From the NCBI GenBank assembly GCA_028687755.1, contig JAQTZL010000001.1, positions 201,404 through 265,403 of the forward strand: a stretch of 64,000 nt of DNA, in the 5' to 3' direction. The position numbers and the translations under genes are program-made. This stretch comes from Candidatus Nanopelagicales bacterium (GTDB lineage: Bacteria > Actinomycetota > Actinomycetes > S36-B12). This document shows, piece after piece, positions 57,021 to 64,000 of this stretch (within the stretch, counting starts at the first letter, position 1; the number at the start of each line of letters is the position of its first letter). The notes below the pieces were generated by a model that had not been told where the DNA came from, did no database searches, and saw nothing but the letters and a program-made list of their open reading frames with translations.

Positions 57021-57509
57021 CTACTTGGTGGTGCTGGTGGTGCTCGGCTCTTGTCCGAGTGGTTCGCCCTCTGCGCGCAGCAGTGCGATCTCGGCTTCGA
57101 AATCCTCAAGGGTGTCGAAGGAGCGGTAGACGGAAGCAAAGCGGAGGTAGGCAACTTCATCGAGTTCACGAAGCGGCCCCAGGATGGCTAGGCCAACCTC
57201 TTGGGTAGGGACTTCAGACGCACCAGCGGCACGCAAGGTGTCTTCTACCTGTTGAGCTAATCGAGCAAGATCGTCATCACTGACGGGACGGCCTTGGCAG
57301 GCTTTGCGCACACCGTTGACCACCTTTTGGCGATTGAAGGTTTCCAGAGCGCCAGATCGCTTCGCGATCAGGAGGATTGAGGTCTCAGCCGTAGTGAACC
57401 GGCGACCACATTGGGCGCATTCGCGACGACGACGGATAGCTAGGCCATCCTCAGCCGCCCGGGAGTCGACCACGCGGGAATCGTCTTCTTTGCAGAATGG
57501 GCATCTCAT
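57021..57509 (-). CDS. nrdR: transcriptional repressor NrdR
   Basis: [17 protein letters not shown] zinc ribbon, a second Cys pair ([10 protein letters not shown]), then an ATP-cone. Confidence 0.95.
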
Positions 57510-57616
57510 CGGTGTCTCTCCCTTCTCATCTGTTTACTTCCGTAACATCTGTTTCACTTCTTCGGCCGTCTTGGGGATTTCTTGGGGGAAATCTTGTGGA
57601 CAACCTGTGGTTAGCG

Positions 57617-57664
57617 AACCACTACCTGTGGAGTAATCACGACGTTGTAACTACTACATCTAGG
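57617..57664 (-). promoter_or_regulatory. probable tandem NrdR boxes upstream of nrdR-nrdJ
   Basis: Two related 16-mers, aaccactacctgtgga (57617-57632) and aactactacatctagg (57649-57664), lie 32 bp apart. This matches the tandem, helically phased arrangement reported for NrdR boxes. The match to the published consensus was judged from memory. Confidence 0.45.
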
Positions 57665-57989
57665 GGTCGAAACATTACTGTGCGCTAGGCCACTTTGCAA
57701 GATTTCGACACCGACACGCCGCCACGATTCTTTTTTGCCCCTGATTTGGTCGTGCTGTGTGGGTTTTGCTCGAGTATTCGGGTCATTCCTGGGGTCCACT
57801 GCCCCACTTCTTTTACTTTCGCGTTATCCACAAGCCCTATCTATAGGGGCTAGCTCTGACATTGGGGTTTGCCTGCTTTTCTCCTTGAGCGCTCGTTGGT
57901 TATCCACTGCAGGTGGAATGTCTGGATTGCGTCCACAGATTGCGAGTCTGGCCTTTTCTTCTTGGTGTCTAGTAGATTAGACAGCAAGG

Positions 57990-58199
57990 GTGAAACGTCG
58001 AGAATTTATCGCGATCCTGAGCACCTTGGCTCACGAGGCAGGCGTTGAGTTTGTCTTTGTGCGCAATGGAAGCCGCCATGACATCTATCGCGTCCATCAC
58101 CTCCCGATCAGCATTCCTCGGCATCGGGAACTTTCAGAAAGATTGACAGTTCGAGAAATTGGCAATTGCAAGAAATACCTCAAGGAGTTGAAGCCATGA
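57990..58199 (+). CDS. hicA: HicA-family mRNA interferase toxin
   Basis: 69 aa with GSRHDIYRV ... IPRHRELS, a HicA-like pattern. Its stop overlaps the downstream start (ATGA). Confidence 0.65.
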   Translation: MKRREFIAILSTLAHEAGVEFVFVRNGSRHDIYRVHHLPISIPRHRELSERLTVREIGNCKKYLKELKP

Positions 58200-58591
58200 G
58201 AAAAAAGTACAAGGTCTTTGCGGTTCAAGACGGCCCTTGGTGGTCATTACATATTCCAGGCATTGAAGGCGCCCTTGGCGGTGAAATCAATACGCAAGCT
58301 CGCAGAATTAATCGCATTGAGAGTATGGCTCGAGATGCAATTTCACTCATGCTCGAAGCTCCTGCAGATTCTTTTGATATCGATATCCACTTCGAGATGA
58401 CAGATGAGATGCGCGCAGTGCTCAATGAAATCAACGAAGCAAAAGCTTCCGCTCTCCAAGCTCAGTCACTACTTGCTCAACGCACACGTTCAGCCGTGCG
58501 GTATTTACAAGCCCATGGTTTGAGTACTCGCGATAGCGGCACACTCATTGGCCTTTCAGCACAAAGGGTTTCGCAGTTACTTTCTGAGTGA
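58196..58591 (+). CDS. hicB: HicB-like antitoxin with a C-terminal HTH
   Basis: The start is set at MRKKYKVFAVQDGPWWSLHIPGI (HicB-like N-terminal fold pattern). The C-terminal HTH is GLSTRDSGTLIGLSAQRVSQLL. Confidence 0.6.
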   Translation: MRKKYKVFAVQDGPWWSLHIPGIEGALGGEINTQARRINRIESMARDAISLMLEAPADSFDIDIHFEMTDEMRAVLNEINEAKASALQAQSLLAQRTRSAVRYLQAHGLSTRDSGTLIGLSAQRVSQLLSE

Positions 58592-58635
58592 GCGATCCTC
58601 AACCATTGATCTAGAACAAAAAGTGCTGCACGATA

Positions 58636-58959
58636 TTGATCATGGCATCTCAAACCCACAGTCATAGCGATCGTCGGATCACACTCGCCCTCACCGAGAG
58701 CGAACTTGCTGACCTCAATCAAATAATCGCAGACCGGTCACTTCGTGAAGCCCTTGAAGAACTTTCTCATAGCGAAGTCACGGCAACCCACGACACTGAC
58801 TCAGGGCTCATTCGCGCTATTTTGGTTTGCGGGATGAGCGCAGTTCATGGTCACGCCGAAACCCAGGGCTACAGAGAACTTGCTAATTCACTAACAGCAG
58901 AAGATGTTGAAGAAAGACTCCATTACGCCACTCGACACCGTGCTAACTGGACCGACTAA
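58636..58959 (+). CDS. hypothetical protein
   Basis: 107-aa acidic helical ORF with no recognised family. Confidence 0.3.
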   Translation: MIMASQTHSHSDRRITLALTESELADLNQIIADRSLREALEELSHSEVTATHDTDSGLIRAILVCGMSAVHGHAETQGYRELANSLTAEDVEERLHYATRHRANWTD

Positions 58960-59010
58960 CGACACGCCATTCGAATGAATTCTCATTCGATCCGTGATTG
59001 ACGCTAACGA

Positions 59011-59310
59011 CTAGTCGCAGTCCAGGCAGACAGGCTTCTTCAGATCGCCATTGGCAAGCTGGGTGTTGTTCTTCACCAGGAAGCAACGAGTGCAGGTGAA
59101 CTCGTTTGACTGAATAGGCACCACGCGAACCTCAAGGGAAAGGCCCGACAGGTCAGCACCAGGAAGCTCGATGTCTTCGGCACTGATGTCGTTCTCATCG
59201 ATCTCAATGGGGGTCTGCGATTGGGCAGCAGCAGCCTCTTTGAGGTGCTCAAGACTTTCGGCAGCCTCTTCAGAGTCGGTCTTACGCGGGGCGTCGTAGT
59301 CAGTTGCCAT
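59011..59310 (-). CDS. DUF4193 protein
   Basis: The start is set at MATDYDAPRK. The C-terminal FTCTRCFLV...CLDC Cys motif is typical of this conserved actinobacterial family. Confidence 0.75.
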   Translation of the reverse strand: MATDYDAPRKTDSEEAAESLEHLKEAAAAQSQTPIEIDENDISAEDIELPGADLSGLSLEVRVVPIQSNEFTCTRCFLVKNNTQLANGDLKKPVCLDCD

Positions 59311-59638
59311 GGTGTTGGTGCTCTCCTTGATGTTCTTCGCCACGTAGATGGTCGAAGGAGGCGGACTTTACCTTGACTCCCCCACAGATTAGGGACGTGG
59401 GGCAGGCGCGTGTTCGGTCCGTTGTCCTGTTCAACAATCCTTAACGCTTTTTATTCCACTCGGGGCAAAACGGACAGGCGATATCGCCTCGTTTTCCACA
59501 AGGTCTTATCGCCTGGATCTCGTCCACAGATCGAGGTATGCGGCTTCCACTGGGCTTTGCCCCATCCCATGCTCGCCGCATGAATCAGCTTCAACCCTTG
59601 CCATCTGGATATTTTCGTACTACGTTAATGAGCGTCTG

Positions 59639-59893
59639 GTGTTAATCATCAACTCCAGCGCCAGAAAACATGGAATAGCTGAGGCTGACATAGAGCACGC
59701 AATTGCTTGGGGGTTTTATCAACGAATCCTCGAAGAAGAGATACCCAGGCGAGTGCTTCATGTCGGCCCCGATGGTTCAGGCAATCCCCTGGAAATCATC
59801 ACCTTGCATTTTGATGATTCCAAAACCGTTGTGATTCATGCCATGAAAGTCACTCAGCAGTACCAGTGGATTCTCAAGGAGCGAGCAAAATGA
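59639..59893 (+). CDS. putative toxin of a type II TA pair (uncharacterised family)
   Basis: 84-aa ORF whose stop overlaps (ATGA) the start of an RHH antitoxin-like gene. Confidence 0.45.
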   Translation: MLIINSSARKHGIAEADIEHAIAWGFYQRILEEEIPRRVLHVGPDGSGNPLEIITLHFDDSKTVVIHAMKVTQQYQWILKERAK

Positions 59894-60168
59894 AAAAGAA
59901 TGATCAAGGCGAAGAAATACTTGGATATTCAGGCGGCATGGCGATAACTCAATCGATCATCGAAGAGCTTGCCGCCGAAGCCGAACGCGGTTACACCCGC
60001 GAACAGTTGCGACGAGGGCGCCCATATTTGGGTTCTGCGATTGCTAAAACCGTGCAAGTGAAATTGAGCCCAGAGCTTCACGTGTTACTGGAAAAACGTG
60101 TTGCGGCTGAAGGAAAATCACGCAGCGAGGTGGTGCGCGAAGCTTTGACGAAATACCTTGCAAGTTAG
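59890..60168 (+). CDS. CopG/ribbon-helix-helix antitoxin-like protein
   Basis: The C-terminal segment VQVKLSPELHVLLEKRVAAEGKSRSEVVREALTKYL is an RHH pattern. Confidence 0.6.
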   Translation: MKKNDQGEEILGYSGGMAITQSIIEELAAEAERGYTREQLRRGRPYLGSAIAKTVQVKLSPELHVLLEKRVAAEGKSRSEVVREALTKYLAS

Positions 60169-60227
60169 CGAATTACTGGCACCACAATCGATTGTCCACC
60201 AGGACATGAAACGGCTTGTCGATTAAG
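60165..60227 (-). pseudogene. remnant of a LysM-gene 3' end
   Basis: The minus strand reads LNRQAVSCPGGQSIVVPVIR-stop. The intact partial LysM gene at 63793.. ends GQSIVVPVVR-stop. The two share an exact 18-mer, tactggcaccacaatcga. Confidence 0.45.
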
Positions 60228-60233
60228 CGTTAT

Positions 60234-61871
60234 CTAAAACACCAACTGCAAGCGAGTACTGAATTCATCCGAGTCAACCTTGATCTGCTCACTCAACACC
60301 GCCCCCAACCATACGTTCCCCATTCCAAGCGGTGCGCTTTCATTCAAGAGAGCGTTCGTGCGAGCATCAAGATGCAGGTCTTCCCCATGGTTGGTCAGTG
60401 AGAACGTAATTTGGGTTGCGCCAGCGCGACGCACAGCATTCGTCACCACTTCTTCAATCGCTGCCACAACAAGACTTAGCCGTGAATCACTGACATCAAC
60501 AGAGGCCGCGATATCAAGATCTATTGCCGCAATCCCCTGCCACGCCTGTTGAATCCTCTCAATGCGCTGCAATGGCGTGAGTTGACTCTTATGAAAATCC
60601 TGCGCAATCGAGCGATTCACTAACGCGGCTAGACGCTCCCATGATTCCTCTGCCGCTTTCGTGCCCGGCGTTGCTTGATCAAGCTGTAGCGCTAAACCGG
60701 TGAGCTCTGATTGCAACGTGTTGTGCAGATAACTCGACATCGCCTGATGCTCTAACGGGGTCAACGTGTCAACGCGCTCTTCGATCACTTTCAAAATTTG
60801 GGTGCGATCTTGCTGGTCCAGTTTCAATGAGGCTGAGCCAATAACTAAGAACAACATTGCGAAGGGAACGAAGGCATACGTAACGATCGGAGCTGCCGGA
60901 TTTACCCATGAGCCTTGAAGGTTCATAACGAGATCCGCGGCGATTACTGGGAGATACACACTTGCCAACACCAATAGTGGCGCCAAGAACTTGTTGGGCC
61001 AGCTACGGATCACTCGCGCACTCAAGGTCAACGCCAAAAAGAAAAAGGCAGAATTCACTGCCGCACTCAGCACACCTCGCTGGGTTCCGAACAACACCGG
61101 AGCGCCAATCGTTGCAACAATCCACCACAGCAGCACTACTGGCACGATGGGAACAGTGAAGCCGACAATCGCATCGCGAATCACCATTGAATAGCGAGCA
61201 TGGGGTTCACGTGACTGCCCACTAAACCAAATGCGATGACTCAGCGGACGAATTCGGTGTTCGATCTCCCATCGAATCGCTGCAGCAGCGTCATCCAAAT
61301 CCTGCTGCGTGGGTTCTACTGTCGTAGCTGCATCGGCAAGAGCTGACTTCAATTGAGACACTTCAGCAAGCCCCTCAAGGTGCCGAGCAACATTTCGCAC
61401 CGCAACTTGATGAACAAGATCTTGATATCGCGTGCGGTACTGGCGCTCCTTGGCAACGATGATGCTTGAAGCTGGCAGCCAAACCAACGCTGCCAGAACT
61501 GCGTTGATGAAACGCAATGGGCCAAGCCAGTGTTCACCATGCTGTGACACTGCGACGACCAATGCGAACGTGACCGCCCGCACCACGCCAACCACAGCTG
61601 ACACCAGTACCAGCGACCACACACCACGGATGAGGGTTGCCAACAGGAACGAAGACGCAACAGTCATCACGCCGACAACAAACGCAGCCAGCACACGCCA
61701 AGCCACGCTTACTTCCCACGTCAATGCAACGGTGAGGGCTGATACTGCACCAAAAATCCACATGGTGATGGGAGTGAAGCGAGCCTGCTGCACCCACTGG
61801 AGCCACATATGCGCTCCATGATCATGTGCACCGCGGGTTTTGCCAAGAACTTCCTTCACTTGGTTACGCAC
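60234..61871 (-). CDS. membrane sensor histidine kinase-like protein (atypical)
   Basis: 545 aa with many TM helices. A candidate H-box is SSYLHNTLQSELTGLAL (HisKA_3-like), and the C-terminal segment is ATPase-like. Its start overlaps the stop of the NarL-type regulator gene. Confidence 0.5.
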   Translation of the reverse strand: MRNQVKEVLGKTRGAHDHGAHMWLQWVQQARFTPITMWIFGAVSALTVALTWEVSVAWRVLAAFVVGVMTVASSFLLATLIRGVWSLVLVSAVVGVVRAVTFALVVAVSQHGEHWLGPLRFINAVLAALVWLPASSIIVAKERQYRTRYQDLVHQVAVRNVARHLEGLAEVSQLKSALADAATTVEPTQQDLDDAAAAIRWEIEHRIRPLSHRIWFSGQSREPHARYSMVIRDAIVGFTVPIVPVVLLWWIVATIGAPVLFGTQRGVLSAAVNSAFFFLALTLSARVIRSWPNKFLAPLLVLASVYLPVIAADLVMNLQGSWVNPAAPIVTYAFVPFAMLFLVIGSASLKLDQQDRTQILKVIEERVDTLTPLEHQAMSSYLHNTLQSELTGLALQLDQATPGTKAAEESWERLAALVNRSIAQDFHKSQLTPLQRIERIQQAWQGIAAIDLDIAASVDVSDSRLSLVVAAIEEVVTNAVRRAGATQITFSLTNHGEDLHLDARTNALLNESAPLGMGNVWLGAVLSEQIKVDSDEFSTRLQLVF

Positions 61872-62518
61872 TAACTTGGCATCGCTTTGCCGGAAAGTTG
61901 CACATACGCGCGCGTTAATAACACCCGAGGGTTTCCTTGAGCCGAATCCAGGGATAACGCTTCCATTACGCGGGAAATTGTGCGCTCAACTGCTTTATTG
62001 CTCACCTGCATCGCAAGCGCAATCTCTGCATTAGTGCGACCTTCGGCAACAAGCTTGAGTACCTGCATTTGATTGTCTGTCAGTTCGCGCACCATGGAAG
62101 CCGAAGACGTTAACTTCAGTGGCTCACGCACTGCCTGCAAGAGTGTCGTGCGAAGCAAATCCACGTCATCGAGTGCAGTTTTGATGAGATAGCGGGCCCC
62201 TCTGGGAAGCGCGCGTTCACTTGGATCCTTGATTCGTGGATCAGAGAAACTTGTGAGAAGAATAAGGCCGATATTTGGCAAACGCTCTCGAAGTGCATAA
62301 GCCAAATCAATACCTGACGGCCCAGCTCCTAAATCCAAATCCAAGAGCGCAATTTCCACTGGCTCACCCCTTGCCCCTGCATCCTCAAAGGCTGCAAGTG
62401 CTTGCGCAGAGTTCGCACTTTGCCCAACGACAACAAAACCCAATGAGGTCAGTGACGTGACAAGCAACGCACGCGTAAAGGCTTCGTCTTCAACTAGGAG
62501 CACCCGAGCGTGAATCAC
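61871..62518 (-). CDS. NarL/LuxR-family response regulator
   Basis: The start is trimmed to GTG at 62518 (VIHARVLLVEDEAF...). A receiver domain (LLDLDLG) is followed by a LuxR HTH (LTDNQMQVLKLVAEGRTNAEIALAMQVSNKAVERTI). Confidence 0.85.
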   Translation of the reverse strand: MIHARVLLVEDEAFTRALLVTSLTSLGFVVVGQSANSAQALAAFEDAGARGEPVEIALLDLDLGAGPSGIDLAYALRERLPNIGLILLTSFSDPRIKDPSERALPRGARYLIKTALDDVDLLRTTLLQAVREPLKLTSSASMVRELTDNQMQVLKLVAEGRTNAEIALAMQVSNKAVERTISRVMEALSLDSAQGNPRVLLTRAYVQLSGKAMPS

Positions 62519-62552
62519 TTGACCATTATTGGCCGTCAAGTGTCGACCTGCG

Positions 62553-63719
62553 CTATCGCACAGACCAAGTGCTCGCTGAGTTGTAATAGGGCTGACGCAC
62601 GCACACAAACCCACCGGTGCCGCCATTGGGCCATTGCGCCCAGCTACGACCCCAAGCCTGATCCTTAAGACTGGCCAAGGCTGGGAAATCTGCGAGGTCC
62701 TTTGGTTGAATTTCGCAGGTTCCATCGCTTGTTCGGGCGTACTGCTGCATTGCTGCGGTGGGAATGTTGTCACCAAAGAGCTGAGCGACCAGTGAAATGA
62801 AAGTGACCGTGTTGTCGGTGGCGTTGAGGACATACGCACGCGTTGCGTCAGCGTTCACAGCAACATCTGTTGCCCCGGCACCTACTGGATATGTAGCCGA
62901 CACTGCGCCTGTTACTAGTGAGAAGACTTTCAGTAACCGCCCTGTGCCGTCAGTTACATATCCAACGCCGCGGGCGCTTTGCACAGCAATGCTCGAAAGG
63001 TTTCCACCGATAACTAGTTGACTATTCGGCCCACCAGTTCGGCGAAACACATCAACGATTCCGCTTGTTTCAGGCACATAAGAAGTTACGCCATCATCGG
63101 AAATCGCAAGGCCAGTAATAACGCCTGTCGCCATGAAGTTGATACCACTGTTGATGTAACGAACTACGGACGTTCCGGAAACAGCAAGCTCAGATGCATT
63201 TTGCGAAACCGCGACAAAATAGCGATCGATCGATCCGGTATACACAATTGAAGTGGCGTAGGTGTTGGTATCAATCGCAGCAACTCTGAAATTTCCACTG
63301 CCGCAGGCGATATAGACGGCACCACCCAATGGGTTATAGGCCATAGCTCGAGGATCAGTACACCCCGAGATCGATGACACTGCCTGTACAAGTGTTCCAT
63401 TTGCAGCGTTGATAATTTTATAGGCCGCGCCCGCAATCACAACGATTACGCGGGTGCCATCTGGGCTGATCGCGATCGCTGTAGGTGAACCAGTCACATT
63501 CCACGTATCAATCACCTGATTGGTGCTCGTGCTCACTACTGAGACAGCGTTGTTGGTGTTACTAGTGACGAATGCTTTTGATCCATCAGGACTCAACACC
63601 ATGTGTTGCGAACCAGTGGGCAGAGCAACAGTGGCAACCACTGCGCCTGCTTGTGCCTGCGAGATACCCGCGAAGCTAAGGGTCAAGACGGATAAACCTA
63701 GGAGAACAATGCGTCGCAT
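62553..63719 (-). CDS. secreted YVTN-type beta-propeller repeat protein
   Basis: Signal peptide, then repeated segments of about 40 aa (AISPDGTRV, AVSQNASEL, AVNADATRAYVLN...). The C-terminal ~70 aa form a Cys/Trp-containing module. Confidence 0.6.
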   Translation of the reverse strand: MRRIVLLGLSVLTLSFAGISQAQAGAVVATVALPTGSQHMVLSPDGSKAFVTSNTNNAVSVVSTSTNQVIDTWNVTGSPTAIAISPDGTRVIVVIAGAAYKIINAANGTLVQAVSSISGCTDPRAMAYNPLGGAVYIACGSGNFRVAAIDTNTYATSIVYTGSIDRYFVAVSQNASELAVSGTSVVRYINSGINFMATGVITGLAISDDGVTSYVPETSGIVDVFRRTGGPNSQLVIGGNLSSIAVQSARGVGYVTDGTGRLLKVFSLVTGAVSATYPVGAGATDVAVNADATRAYVLNATDNTVTFISLVAQLFGDNIPTAAMQQYARTSDGTCEIQPKDLADFPALASLKDQAWGRSWAQWPNGGTGGFVCVRQPYYNSASTWSVR

Positions 63720-63792
63720 TACTGCAGGCTAGAAAAGCTGCATTGCCTTGCCTAATCACATGTGGGGATGTCCCCACCATGACGCCGACTGA

Positions 63793-64000
63793 CTATCGAA
63801 CTACTGGCACCACAATCGACTGACCAACTGCAACCACAGCGGTGTTCATGCCGTTGAGATCCTTGATGTCATTGATCGTTGCGCGAGGGTCCTGATCAGG
63901 CGCAATGGTTTGCGCAATTGACCACAGTGACTCACCTGGCTGCACGACAACGGTTGCTGTTGCTGGCCCAGCATTCGTTGATGTTGCAATTGCCTTGGAA
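63793..64000 (-). CDS. LysM domain protein, 3' part (gene continues beyond the window)
   Basis: My own minus-strand translation reads ...VVVQPGESLWSIAQTIAPDQDPRATINDIKDLNGMNTAVVAVGQSIVVPVVR-stop. It is absent from the ORF track because its start lies outside the window. Confidence 0.75.
   Translation of the reverse strand, partial: SKAIATSTNAGPATATVVVQPGESLWSIAQTIAPDQDPRATINDIKDLNGMNTAVVAVGQSIVVPVVR

Follow-up and report, generated by a model that had tools for sequence, protein, structure and literature searches.

Insertion of a three-gene sensory operon at the 3' end of a LysM-domain gene, with a putative displaced gene end, in a Candidatus Nanopelagicales genome

The stretch analysed here (the window) comprises 64,000 nucleotides (nt) of a Candidatus Nanopelagicales bacterium, contig C5:201404-265403 of a 2.5-Mb assembly labelled G000. 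Near its right end the 3' terminus of a LysM-domain gene is present twice, and between the two copies lies an insert of three co-directional genes (60203-63792, 3.6 kb), coding for a secreted beta-propeller, a response regulator and a histidine kinase. The insert is absent from close relatives, is shared with one sister lineage, carries a conserved inverted repeat and contains no recombinase. With a probability of about 0.55, the locus is the scar of homologous or illegitimate recombination anchored on the LysM gene, in which no dedicated integrase took part and which may be called 3'-end displacement. If so, it is a clean case of an accessory sensory operon that gained entry to the chromosome by pushing aside the 3' end of a conserved gene, which stays intact, within an nrdR-LysM-lexA arrangement otherwise stable across Actinobacteria. 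Its importance is modest: it adds a new example to a kind of event already known, and reveals neither a new kind of mobile element nor a new mechanism.

A repeat search of the window detected the two copies as a direct repeat at 60166-60198 and 63794-63826, with 29 of 33 positions identical (88%) and a spacing of 3628 nt. Reading of the sequence likewise retrieves the 32-nt string, identical at 28 of 32 positions around an exact 18-mer, which had been reported in the initial annotation of this stretch. The window holds two occurrences of the 17-mer core at up to two mismatches, where 0.02 would be expected. With the same tolerance, the 18-mer TACTGGCACCACAATCGA is found in the whole 2.5-Mb genome only at the two repeat copies, so it is not a common dispersed motif, and the genome holds no third, attP-like copy of the core. 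On the minus strand both copies are read in the same frame ahead of a stop codon, as GQSIVVPVVR-stop at 63793 and GGQSIVVPVIR-stop at 60165.

The right-hand copy (63793..63830, minus strand) is the 3' end of the functional LysM gene, with a TAG stop at 63793-63795. It is of the allele type linked to the insert: its positions 1, 10 and 16 match the true end of the sister lineage, unlike those of the related genomes G007, G008 and G006. The left-hand copy (60165..60202, minus strand) consists of a TAA stop at 60165-60167 and 35 further nt. It had been taken to extend to 60227; blastn comparison with the LysM 3' ends of two relatives, G008 and G006, showed that the likeness ends at 60202, which reduces this stub from 63 to 38 nt. 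The stop codon of the stub overlaps the stop codon of a convergent gene for a ribbon-helix-helix (RHH) antitoxin (TTAG), and the equivalent overlap, TTAA, is found at the intact RHH-LysM junction of G007 and G008. Since this geometry matches that of the intact gene in two genomes lacking the insert, the left-hand copy is, on sequence and position, the displaced original end of the LysM gene. Synteny with the same two genomes agrees with the earlier assignment of the right-hand copy as gene end and of the left-hand copy as orphan. The stub should not be annotated as a gene: it is a non-coding remnant, and the list of open reading frames (ORFs) holds none of at least 40 aa covering it.

Between the stub and the stop codon of the kinase gene lies a junction spacer (60203..60233), which shares with the corresponding spacer of the sister lineage only the 8-mer ACATGAAA; an equal score was reached by 78 of 2000 shuffled sequences, and the match is not convincing. 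The TAG stop of the kinase gene is in frame with the stub (60165-60236), and is followed by 22 sense codons and then by the TAA of the stub, so that read-through would append ...GGQSIVVPVIR to the kinase; this placement, expected in one case out of three, is probably a coincidence.

The nrdR gene was located in 37 of 41 related genomes, 16 loci were fetched and the proteins of the window were mapped onto them. The nine loci taken from other genera or families all show the order nrdJ-nrdR-LysM-lexA; in them nrdR and LysM are separated by 220-590 nt, or by about 1-1.4 kb when a secreted SGNH-type hydrolase is present; within the genus, the two genes are contiguous in one species (G001). The adjacency of LysM and nrdR in relatives, which the initial annotation had stated, is confirmed. 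In the window nrdR, the conserved left anchor (57021..57509, minus strand), lies 6283 nt from LysM. The earlier figure of about 6.3 kb is therefore accurate as a distance, but only 3.6 kb of it is due to the insert, the remaining 2.7 kb being made up of a variable cassette region and a DUF4193 gene, found genus-wide and without LysM stubs.

Sites lacking the insert were found in G007, the closest species representative, whose NrdR is 100% identical at the protein level, and in G008: in both, an intact LysM gene faces the RHH gene in convergent orientation, and homologous toxin/RHH pairs abut it directly. Alignment with these genomes confirms that the 3.6 kb are an insertion relative to the ancestral state, starting after the stub at 60203. 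G007 aligns with the sister-lineage contig L037 as if the insert had been cut out of the latter, 27 nt being aligned twice. The insert is missing from all 12 remaining species representatives of the genus, and 173 genomes of the family contain no close homologue of its kinase, the best one being 37% identical. In a set of 5.8 billion proteins the sole near relative of the kinase is 82% identical and comes from three NCBI metagenome-assembled genomes, which represent the sister lineage. There the order is lexA, LysM, propeller, response regulator, kinase, RHH gene, DUF4193, PemK pair and nrdR, and the stub is shorter and decayed (28 nt, SIVFPVIH-stop).

The G000-type arrangement recurs in 12 independent metagenome contigs from several studies, in which the stub is 100% identical and the left-hand cassettes differ. 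Contigs from eight sequencing runs (landfill, wastewater, freshwater and groundwater) are collinear over both junctions; the only long skips join DNA upstream of nrdR to the LysM end, and derive from other organisms in the source sample. Neither set of contigs contains an excision joint, a joint skipping the insert or an empty form, as far as assembled contigs, which drop rare variants, can reveal. Exact-protein look-up of the LysM protein returned nothing, and look-ups of the RHH protein and of the kinase returned only contigs bearing the insert. JGI metagenome scans, with the stub junction and by kinase alignment, and a GTDB contig scan with the kinase yielded neither an empty site nor a donor; the single match of a GTDB scan with the insert-type LysM end was a chance one, inside an unrelated deltaproteobacterial ORF. 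Given a sister lineage with a decayed stub, and 12 contigs and eight runs with the same arrangement, the insertion appears to be old and fixed. There is no sign of a live mobile element.

Identity between conspecific strains is mosaic, being 99.8% in the kinase gene, 96% in nrdJ and 54-74% in the core of the propeller gene. Between the two lineages, the synonymous distance (dS) ranges from 0.18 to saturation, too mosaic a pattern to date the event or to tell one acquisition from two. The core identity of the stub and the true end is 18 nt in G000, 14 of 17 in strain L028 and about 20 of 28 in the sister lineage.

The insert is a self-contained operon, read on the minus strand. Its first gene (62553..63719) encodes a secreted 388-aa YVTN-type beta-propeller with a conserved C-terminal domain, matching the TIGR02276 repeat and of lactonase type. 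Over about 62850-63550 (residues ~65-265) conspecific strains are only 54-74% identical at the nucleotide level, whereas the flanking kinase and regulator genes and the ends of the propeller gene are 98-100% identical; against the sister lineage, the synonymous sites of this gene are saturated. The hypervariable central blades look like the result of allele replacement or of diversifying selection on an exposed surface. The second gene (61871..62518) encodes a NarL/LuxR-type response regulator (Response_reg 3e-9, GerE 5e-9), called as 215-222 aa in metagenome contigs. The third (60234..61871) encodes a 545-aa polytopic membrane protein, probably a histidine kinase of a divergent, HisKA_3-like type. 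It has no Pfam match at the default threshold (HATPase_c_2, E=0.11), and the profile of its family matches the ATPase domains of DevS, DosT and VraS weakly (E=0.002-0.45); H383 of the H-box, N478 of the N-box and G516 and G518 of the G2 box are invariant in nine homologues.

Upstream of the propeller gene, at 63762..63777, is the inverted repeat GTGGGGA-TG-TCCCCAC (GTGGGGATGTCCCCAC), the perfect copy of which is unique in the genome. The sister lineage has one at the same position, and the form GTGGGG-N4-CCCCAC occurs also in the intergenic region between regulator and propeller genes in modules of another genus (L022 7696, L023 2875), whose proteins are 33-57% identical. It is a probable operator of the regulator encoded in the insert, and its retention in distant modules suggests that the insert brought its own operator as a unit. 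GC content and third-position GC (GC3) of the insert fall between the 20th and 67th percentiles of the host range, with no compositional anomaly. The system resembles DevS/DosT-DevR, VraSR and LiaSR in having a regulator with receiver and GerE domains, a kinase in which His, Asn and G2 are kept, and a palindromic putative operator. It differs from them in the sensor part of the kinase, about 350 aa long with many transmembrane segments, in a degenerate G1 box, in sub-threshold Pfam matches and in being paired with a secreted, strain-variable beta-propeller.

The gene which lends its end to the duplication extends from 63793 to 64000, and on to 64215 past the window (L003 7793-8215), on the minus strand. 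It encodes 140 aa, with a basic N-terminus, one hydrophobic segment (LVVFFAVVVALFAAMMLFG) and a C-terminal LysM domain at residues 90-137 (Pfam LysM, 7e-9). Its best NCBIfam match is YneA (NF010723), with 51.2 bits against a cut-off of 60. The lexA gene is divergent from it across a spacer of 200 nt, in which three matches to TCGAAC-N4-GTTCGA, each with 0-1 mismatch, are found at L003 8284-8367 (window coordinates 64284-64367, outside the window); these SOS boxes read TCGAACACCTGTTCGA, TCGAACGTATGTGCGA and TCGAACATGTGTTTGA. The gene is a candidate SOS-induced division inhibitor of the ChiZ/DivS/YneA kind, judged from its sequence features. Like ChiZ (Rv2719c), DivS and YneA, its product is small and has a basic N-terminus, one transmembrane segment and a C-terminal LysM domain, and the gene shares with theirs the position between nrdR and lexA, the divergent orientation relative to lexA and three LexA boxes; the sub-cut-off score with the YneA model (51 vs 60 bits) sets it apart. 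LysM domain, divergent lexA and SOS boxes together are in line with the ChiZ/DivS-type gene initially named for this position.

The propeller gene is co-directional with LysM and lies 73 nt downstream of it. Since no terminator-like site was found between the two genes, read-through from the predicted SOS promoter of LysM into the operon is possible. The position of the two-component system and its strain-variable secreted propeller, directly downstream of a candidate SOS-regulated division inhibitor, suggests that transcription may be coupled.

In the reconstruction which we favour, the ancestral locus would have held a toxin/RHH-antitoxin pair, then the LysM gene convergent to it with overlapping stop codons, and then lexA in divergent orientation. 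The incoming DNA would have carried the operator, the propeller, the NarL-type regulator and the HisKA_3-like kinase genes, together with its own copy of a LysM 3' terminus, and would have joined the resident gene by recombination within its final 30-40 nt. The incoming terminus would then complete the LysM gene, with the same C-terminal peptide except for a change of I to V, while the resident terminus would be shifted 3.6 kb downstream, to become the 38-nt non-coding stub beside the antitoxin gene. Homology in LysM and lexA with DNA from a related strain may have anchored one end, the other being joined by illegitimate recombination or by recombination over a very short homology. Once formed, the structure of stub, insert and LysM could spread to naive relatives through the same homology.

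Because the C-terminus was regenerated, the incoming DNA must have carried a LysM 3' end, which rules out that unrelated DNA was inserted at random by illegitimate recombination. One crossover or more must have been resolved in the 66-78 nt separating the stop codons of the RHH and kinase genes, where the stub is the sole part shared with genomes lacking the insert. As the antitoxin and LysM stops overlap, a join further to the left would destroy the antitoxin gene, which would confine viable joins to LysM. Displacement finds support in the orphan resident 3' fragment contiguous with the antitoxin gene, and in the true end, whose terminal allele type is common to both lineages bearing the insert. 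It is supported also by the absence of a recombinase, by host-like composition, by mosaic identity, by the self-contained nature of the operon with its operator, by a junction scar in G006 (see below) and by a published parallel.

This parallel is C-terminal displacement by homology-facilitated illegitimate recombination, proposed for rhs loci and for effector-immunity arrays of type VI secretion systems (PMC5361080). In both cases a module anchored on conserved upstream sequence brings its own 3' end and the resident 3' end is orphaned downstream, a recombinase is not required and the locus is a recombination hotspot bearing further scars. The LysM locus differs in that the displaced piece is only 38 nt long, no polymorphic toxin is involved, the encoded C-terminus is unchanged and a single displacement is visible.

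Some observations weigh against displacement. The donor arrangement which it calls for, with the operon directly downstream of LysM and no stub, was not found in the 173 family genomes, the 5.8-billion protein set, the JGI metagenomes or the GTDB contigs, although absence there is no proof. The two lineages bearing the insert have different types of antitoxin gene and each stub resembles its own type, while the stubs, of 38 and 28 nt, are similar in length; had the two insertions arisen independently, a defined attachment site would be favoured over random illegitimate joins. Stub and true end of G000 share, within the 18-mer, three synonymous states with no counterpart in relatives, so that gene conversion, or a crossover inside the identical core, is needed. 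Finally, an excess of sites in LysM at which G000 equals L037 may merely reflect fast evolution of this gene. A site-pattern test for co-transfer of LysM and insert gave a nominal p=0.002, but LysM proved star-like (19:21:21) and the test was not relied on.

The alternative that retains most weight, though we regard it as doubtful, is site-specific integration, in which the insert would be what remains of an element that used a tyrosine or serine recombinase to integrate at an attB within the final 30-40 nt of LysM; its flanking copies would be attL and attR, and the integrase would have been lost or would act in trans. The initial annotation had pointed to such a pattern. The insert does lie between direct repeats, and the end of the gene has been restored almost perfectly; an exact 18-nt core is unique in the genome. 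Two lineages with different left neighbours have stubs of similar length, and in the sister lineage the stub and the terminal segment of insert-linked allele type are equally long, at 28 nt. Recombinases that might act in trans exist in the genome, with candidates on C17 and C8: four tyrosine-recombinase matches and one large serine recombinase were found, all of them on other contigs or 250 kb away. In agreement with the earlier statement that the insert has no integrase, however, no recombinase was found by Pfam among its three ORFs, and across about 15 versions of the locus Pfam and gene tables disclose neither a recombinase or excisionase nor any further gene for mobility. There is also no third, attP-like copy of the core in the genome or in GTDB representatives, no excision joint in the contigs of the eight runs, and core identity has fallen to 14 of 17 in strain L028; the operon is an ordinary sensory one, of host-like composition.

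Integrative elements, islands and prophages located at the 3' ends of tRNA or protein genes are similar to the LysM insert in their flanking direct repeats, in the regenerated target end and in the empty site of close relatives. The LysM insert differs from them in having no integrase, excisionase or transfer gene and in showing neither an attP copy nor an excision product; its core seems not to be maintained across strains, and its content is one sensory operon, which is fixed in the species. The view of the repeats as attL and attR of an integrative element is not supported, with no recombinase, no excised or empty form, a core apparently not maintained and an event that is old and fixed; the excised forms to which that view pointed were not seen in contigs of the eight runs, which drop rare variants. 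Two specific kinds of element, integrative mobile elements exploiting Xer (IMEX) at dif and Tn7-like elements, were rejected on sequence and geometry: no dif-like core is present, and a duplication of 38 nt within a gene is not in keeping with them.

An unlikely, more far-reaching version makes the last 30-40 nt of the SOS-regulated LysM gene a dedicated and reusable attachment site, which the operon would have entered independently in two lineages with different left neighbours. It might have done so with the help of a recombinase encoded elsewhere, or as a cassette without integrase that leaves and re-enters by recombination between the LysM-end repeats at its own flanks. The insertion would also place the sensory operon under read-through from a promoter induced by DNA damage. 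A defined attachment site, whether of this kind or of that proposed for site-specific integration, is suggested by local distances, which group the genomes as ((G000,G007),L037) and yet leave G007 without the insert, and by the true-end allele type that both lineages bearing the insert have in common (CTA stop, TAC.GGCAC), missing from G007, G008 and G006: three such sites fall in the first 16 nt against 0.4 expected.

Integration of the Campbell type without an integrase has a still smaller chance of being correct. A circle popped from a donor by RecA would enter by a single crossover over about 30-40 nt of LysM 3' homology; this predicts the same direct-repeat pattern, plus a left arm of recipient type in each stub, and makes a recombinase unnecessary. 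Homology of about 30-40 nt is, however, at the lower limit for RecA, neither circles nor deletions are seen in the contigs of the eight runs, and the origin of the first copy is left unexplained.

It is very improbable that the stub has been kept for a function, as part of an expressed gene, as a terminator serving the antitoxin and kinase genes that converge on it, or as a regulatory site. Its 100% identity in 12 contigs and its frame shared with the kinase gene, 22 codons past the TAG stop, might be so interpreted, but conservation is just as high in the adjacent kinase gene (99.8%), so that stub identity carries no extra signal. No ORF of at least 40 aa and no terminator-like site is present, folding is unremarkable (z of -0.3 and -1.6), and the decay and shortening of the stub in the sister lineage make a functional role unlikely. 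Chance similarity or a dispersed repeat, for which the short length of the repeat alone would speak, is practically negligible given two occurrences against 0.02 expected, only two copies in the genome, the shared frame and stop and an RHH junction built as in relatives.

The nrdR-LysM gap as a whole is, from the gene content of the loci compared, a genus-wide variable region of toxin-antitoxin cassettes, and the spacer is thereby flagged as a recombination hotspot of this freshwater and groundwater genus. In the window, the variable cassette region (57510..59638) differs in content among species and strains; it includes a HicA/HicB-like pair (57990-58591, HicA at E=0.06 only), a 107-aa ORF (58636-58959) and the DUF4193 gene (59011-59343, minus strand, E 6e-32). 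It is followed on the plus strand, at 59639..60168, by the pair whose end abuts the stub, an 84-aa toxin-like ORF (DUF4258 at E=0.02 only) and the 92-aa RHH antitoxin (RHH_1, 9e-9). Other members of the genus hold varied mixes of HicA/HicB-like pairs, toxin/RHH pairs, a 105-107-aa ORF, PemK pairs, DUF4193 and a DUF915 protein. None of these other cassettes is accompanied by a LysM stub in 40 loci, and stubs are thus specific to the propeller-regulator-kinase insert. In three other genera the gap holds an SGNH/GDSL-type hydrolase gene (L013 1806-2522, L014 11707-12477, L015 1731-2819), which indicates that it takes up accessory genes outside this genus too; no recombinase is found in these gaps of about 1 kb.

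A second kind of junction scar was observed in the hotspot. In G006 (L006 3293-3306), a remnant of 13-15 nt of the 3' end of a G008-type RHH gene stands against the LysM stop codon, a match equalled by none of 2000 shuffled sequences, and a different toxin/RHH pair lies 100 nt further to the left.

Upstream of both toxin-antitoxin cassettes of the window (57895-57940 and 59487-59531) is a bipartite motif with DnaA-box-like words, TT[AT]TCCAC followed after about 12 nt by [CG]TGGATCTC[AG]TCCACAGAT. The same motif is found in every unit of a tandem repeat downstream of lexA (355 nt, 3.4 copies; L003 9264-10472, window coordinates ~65264-66472, outside the window), and its positions are conserved in G007, G006, L027 and L037. 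In all, the genome has about nine good copies, of which five fall within this 9-kb locus; an Rfam search of the 18-kb locus gave no matches, the motif included. About 7 kb to the right of the window end, at L003 14895-15645, a small overlapping ORF pair stands beside a DinG-like helicase gene. The first ORF of the pair ends in ...LLVIHAMDLRKKW, and its resemblance to the 84-aa toxin-like ORF (59639-59893) suggests that the ORFs beside the helicase gene may be a paralogous toxin/antitoxin pair.

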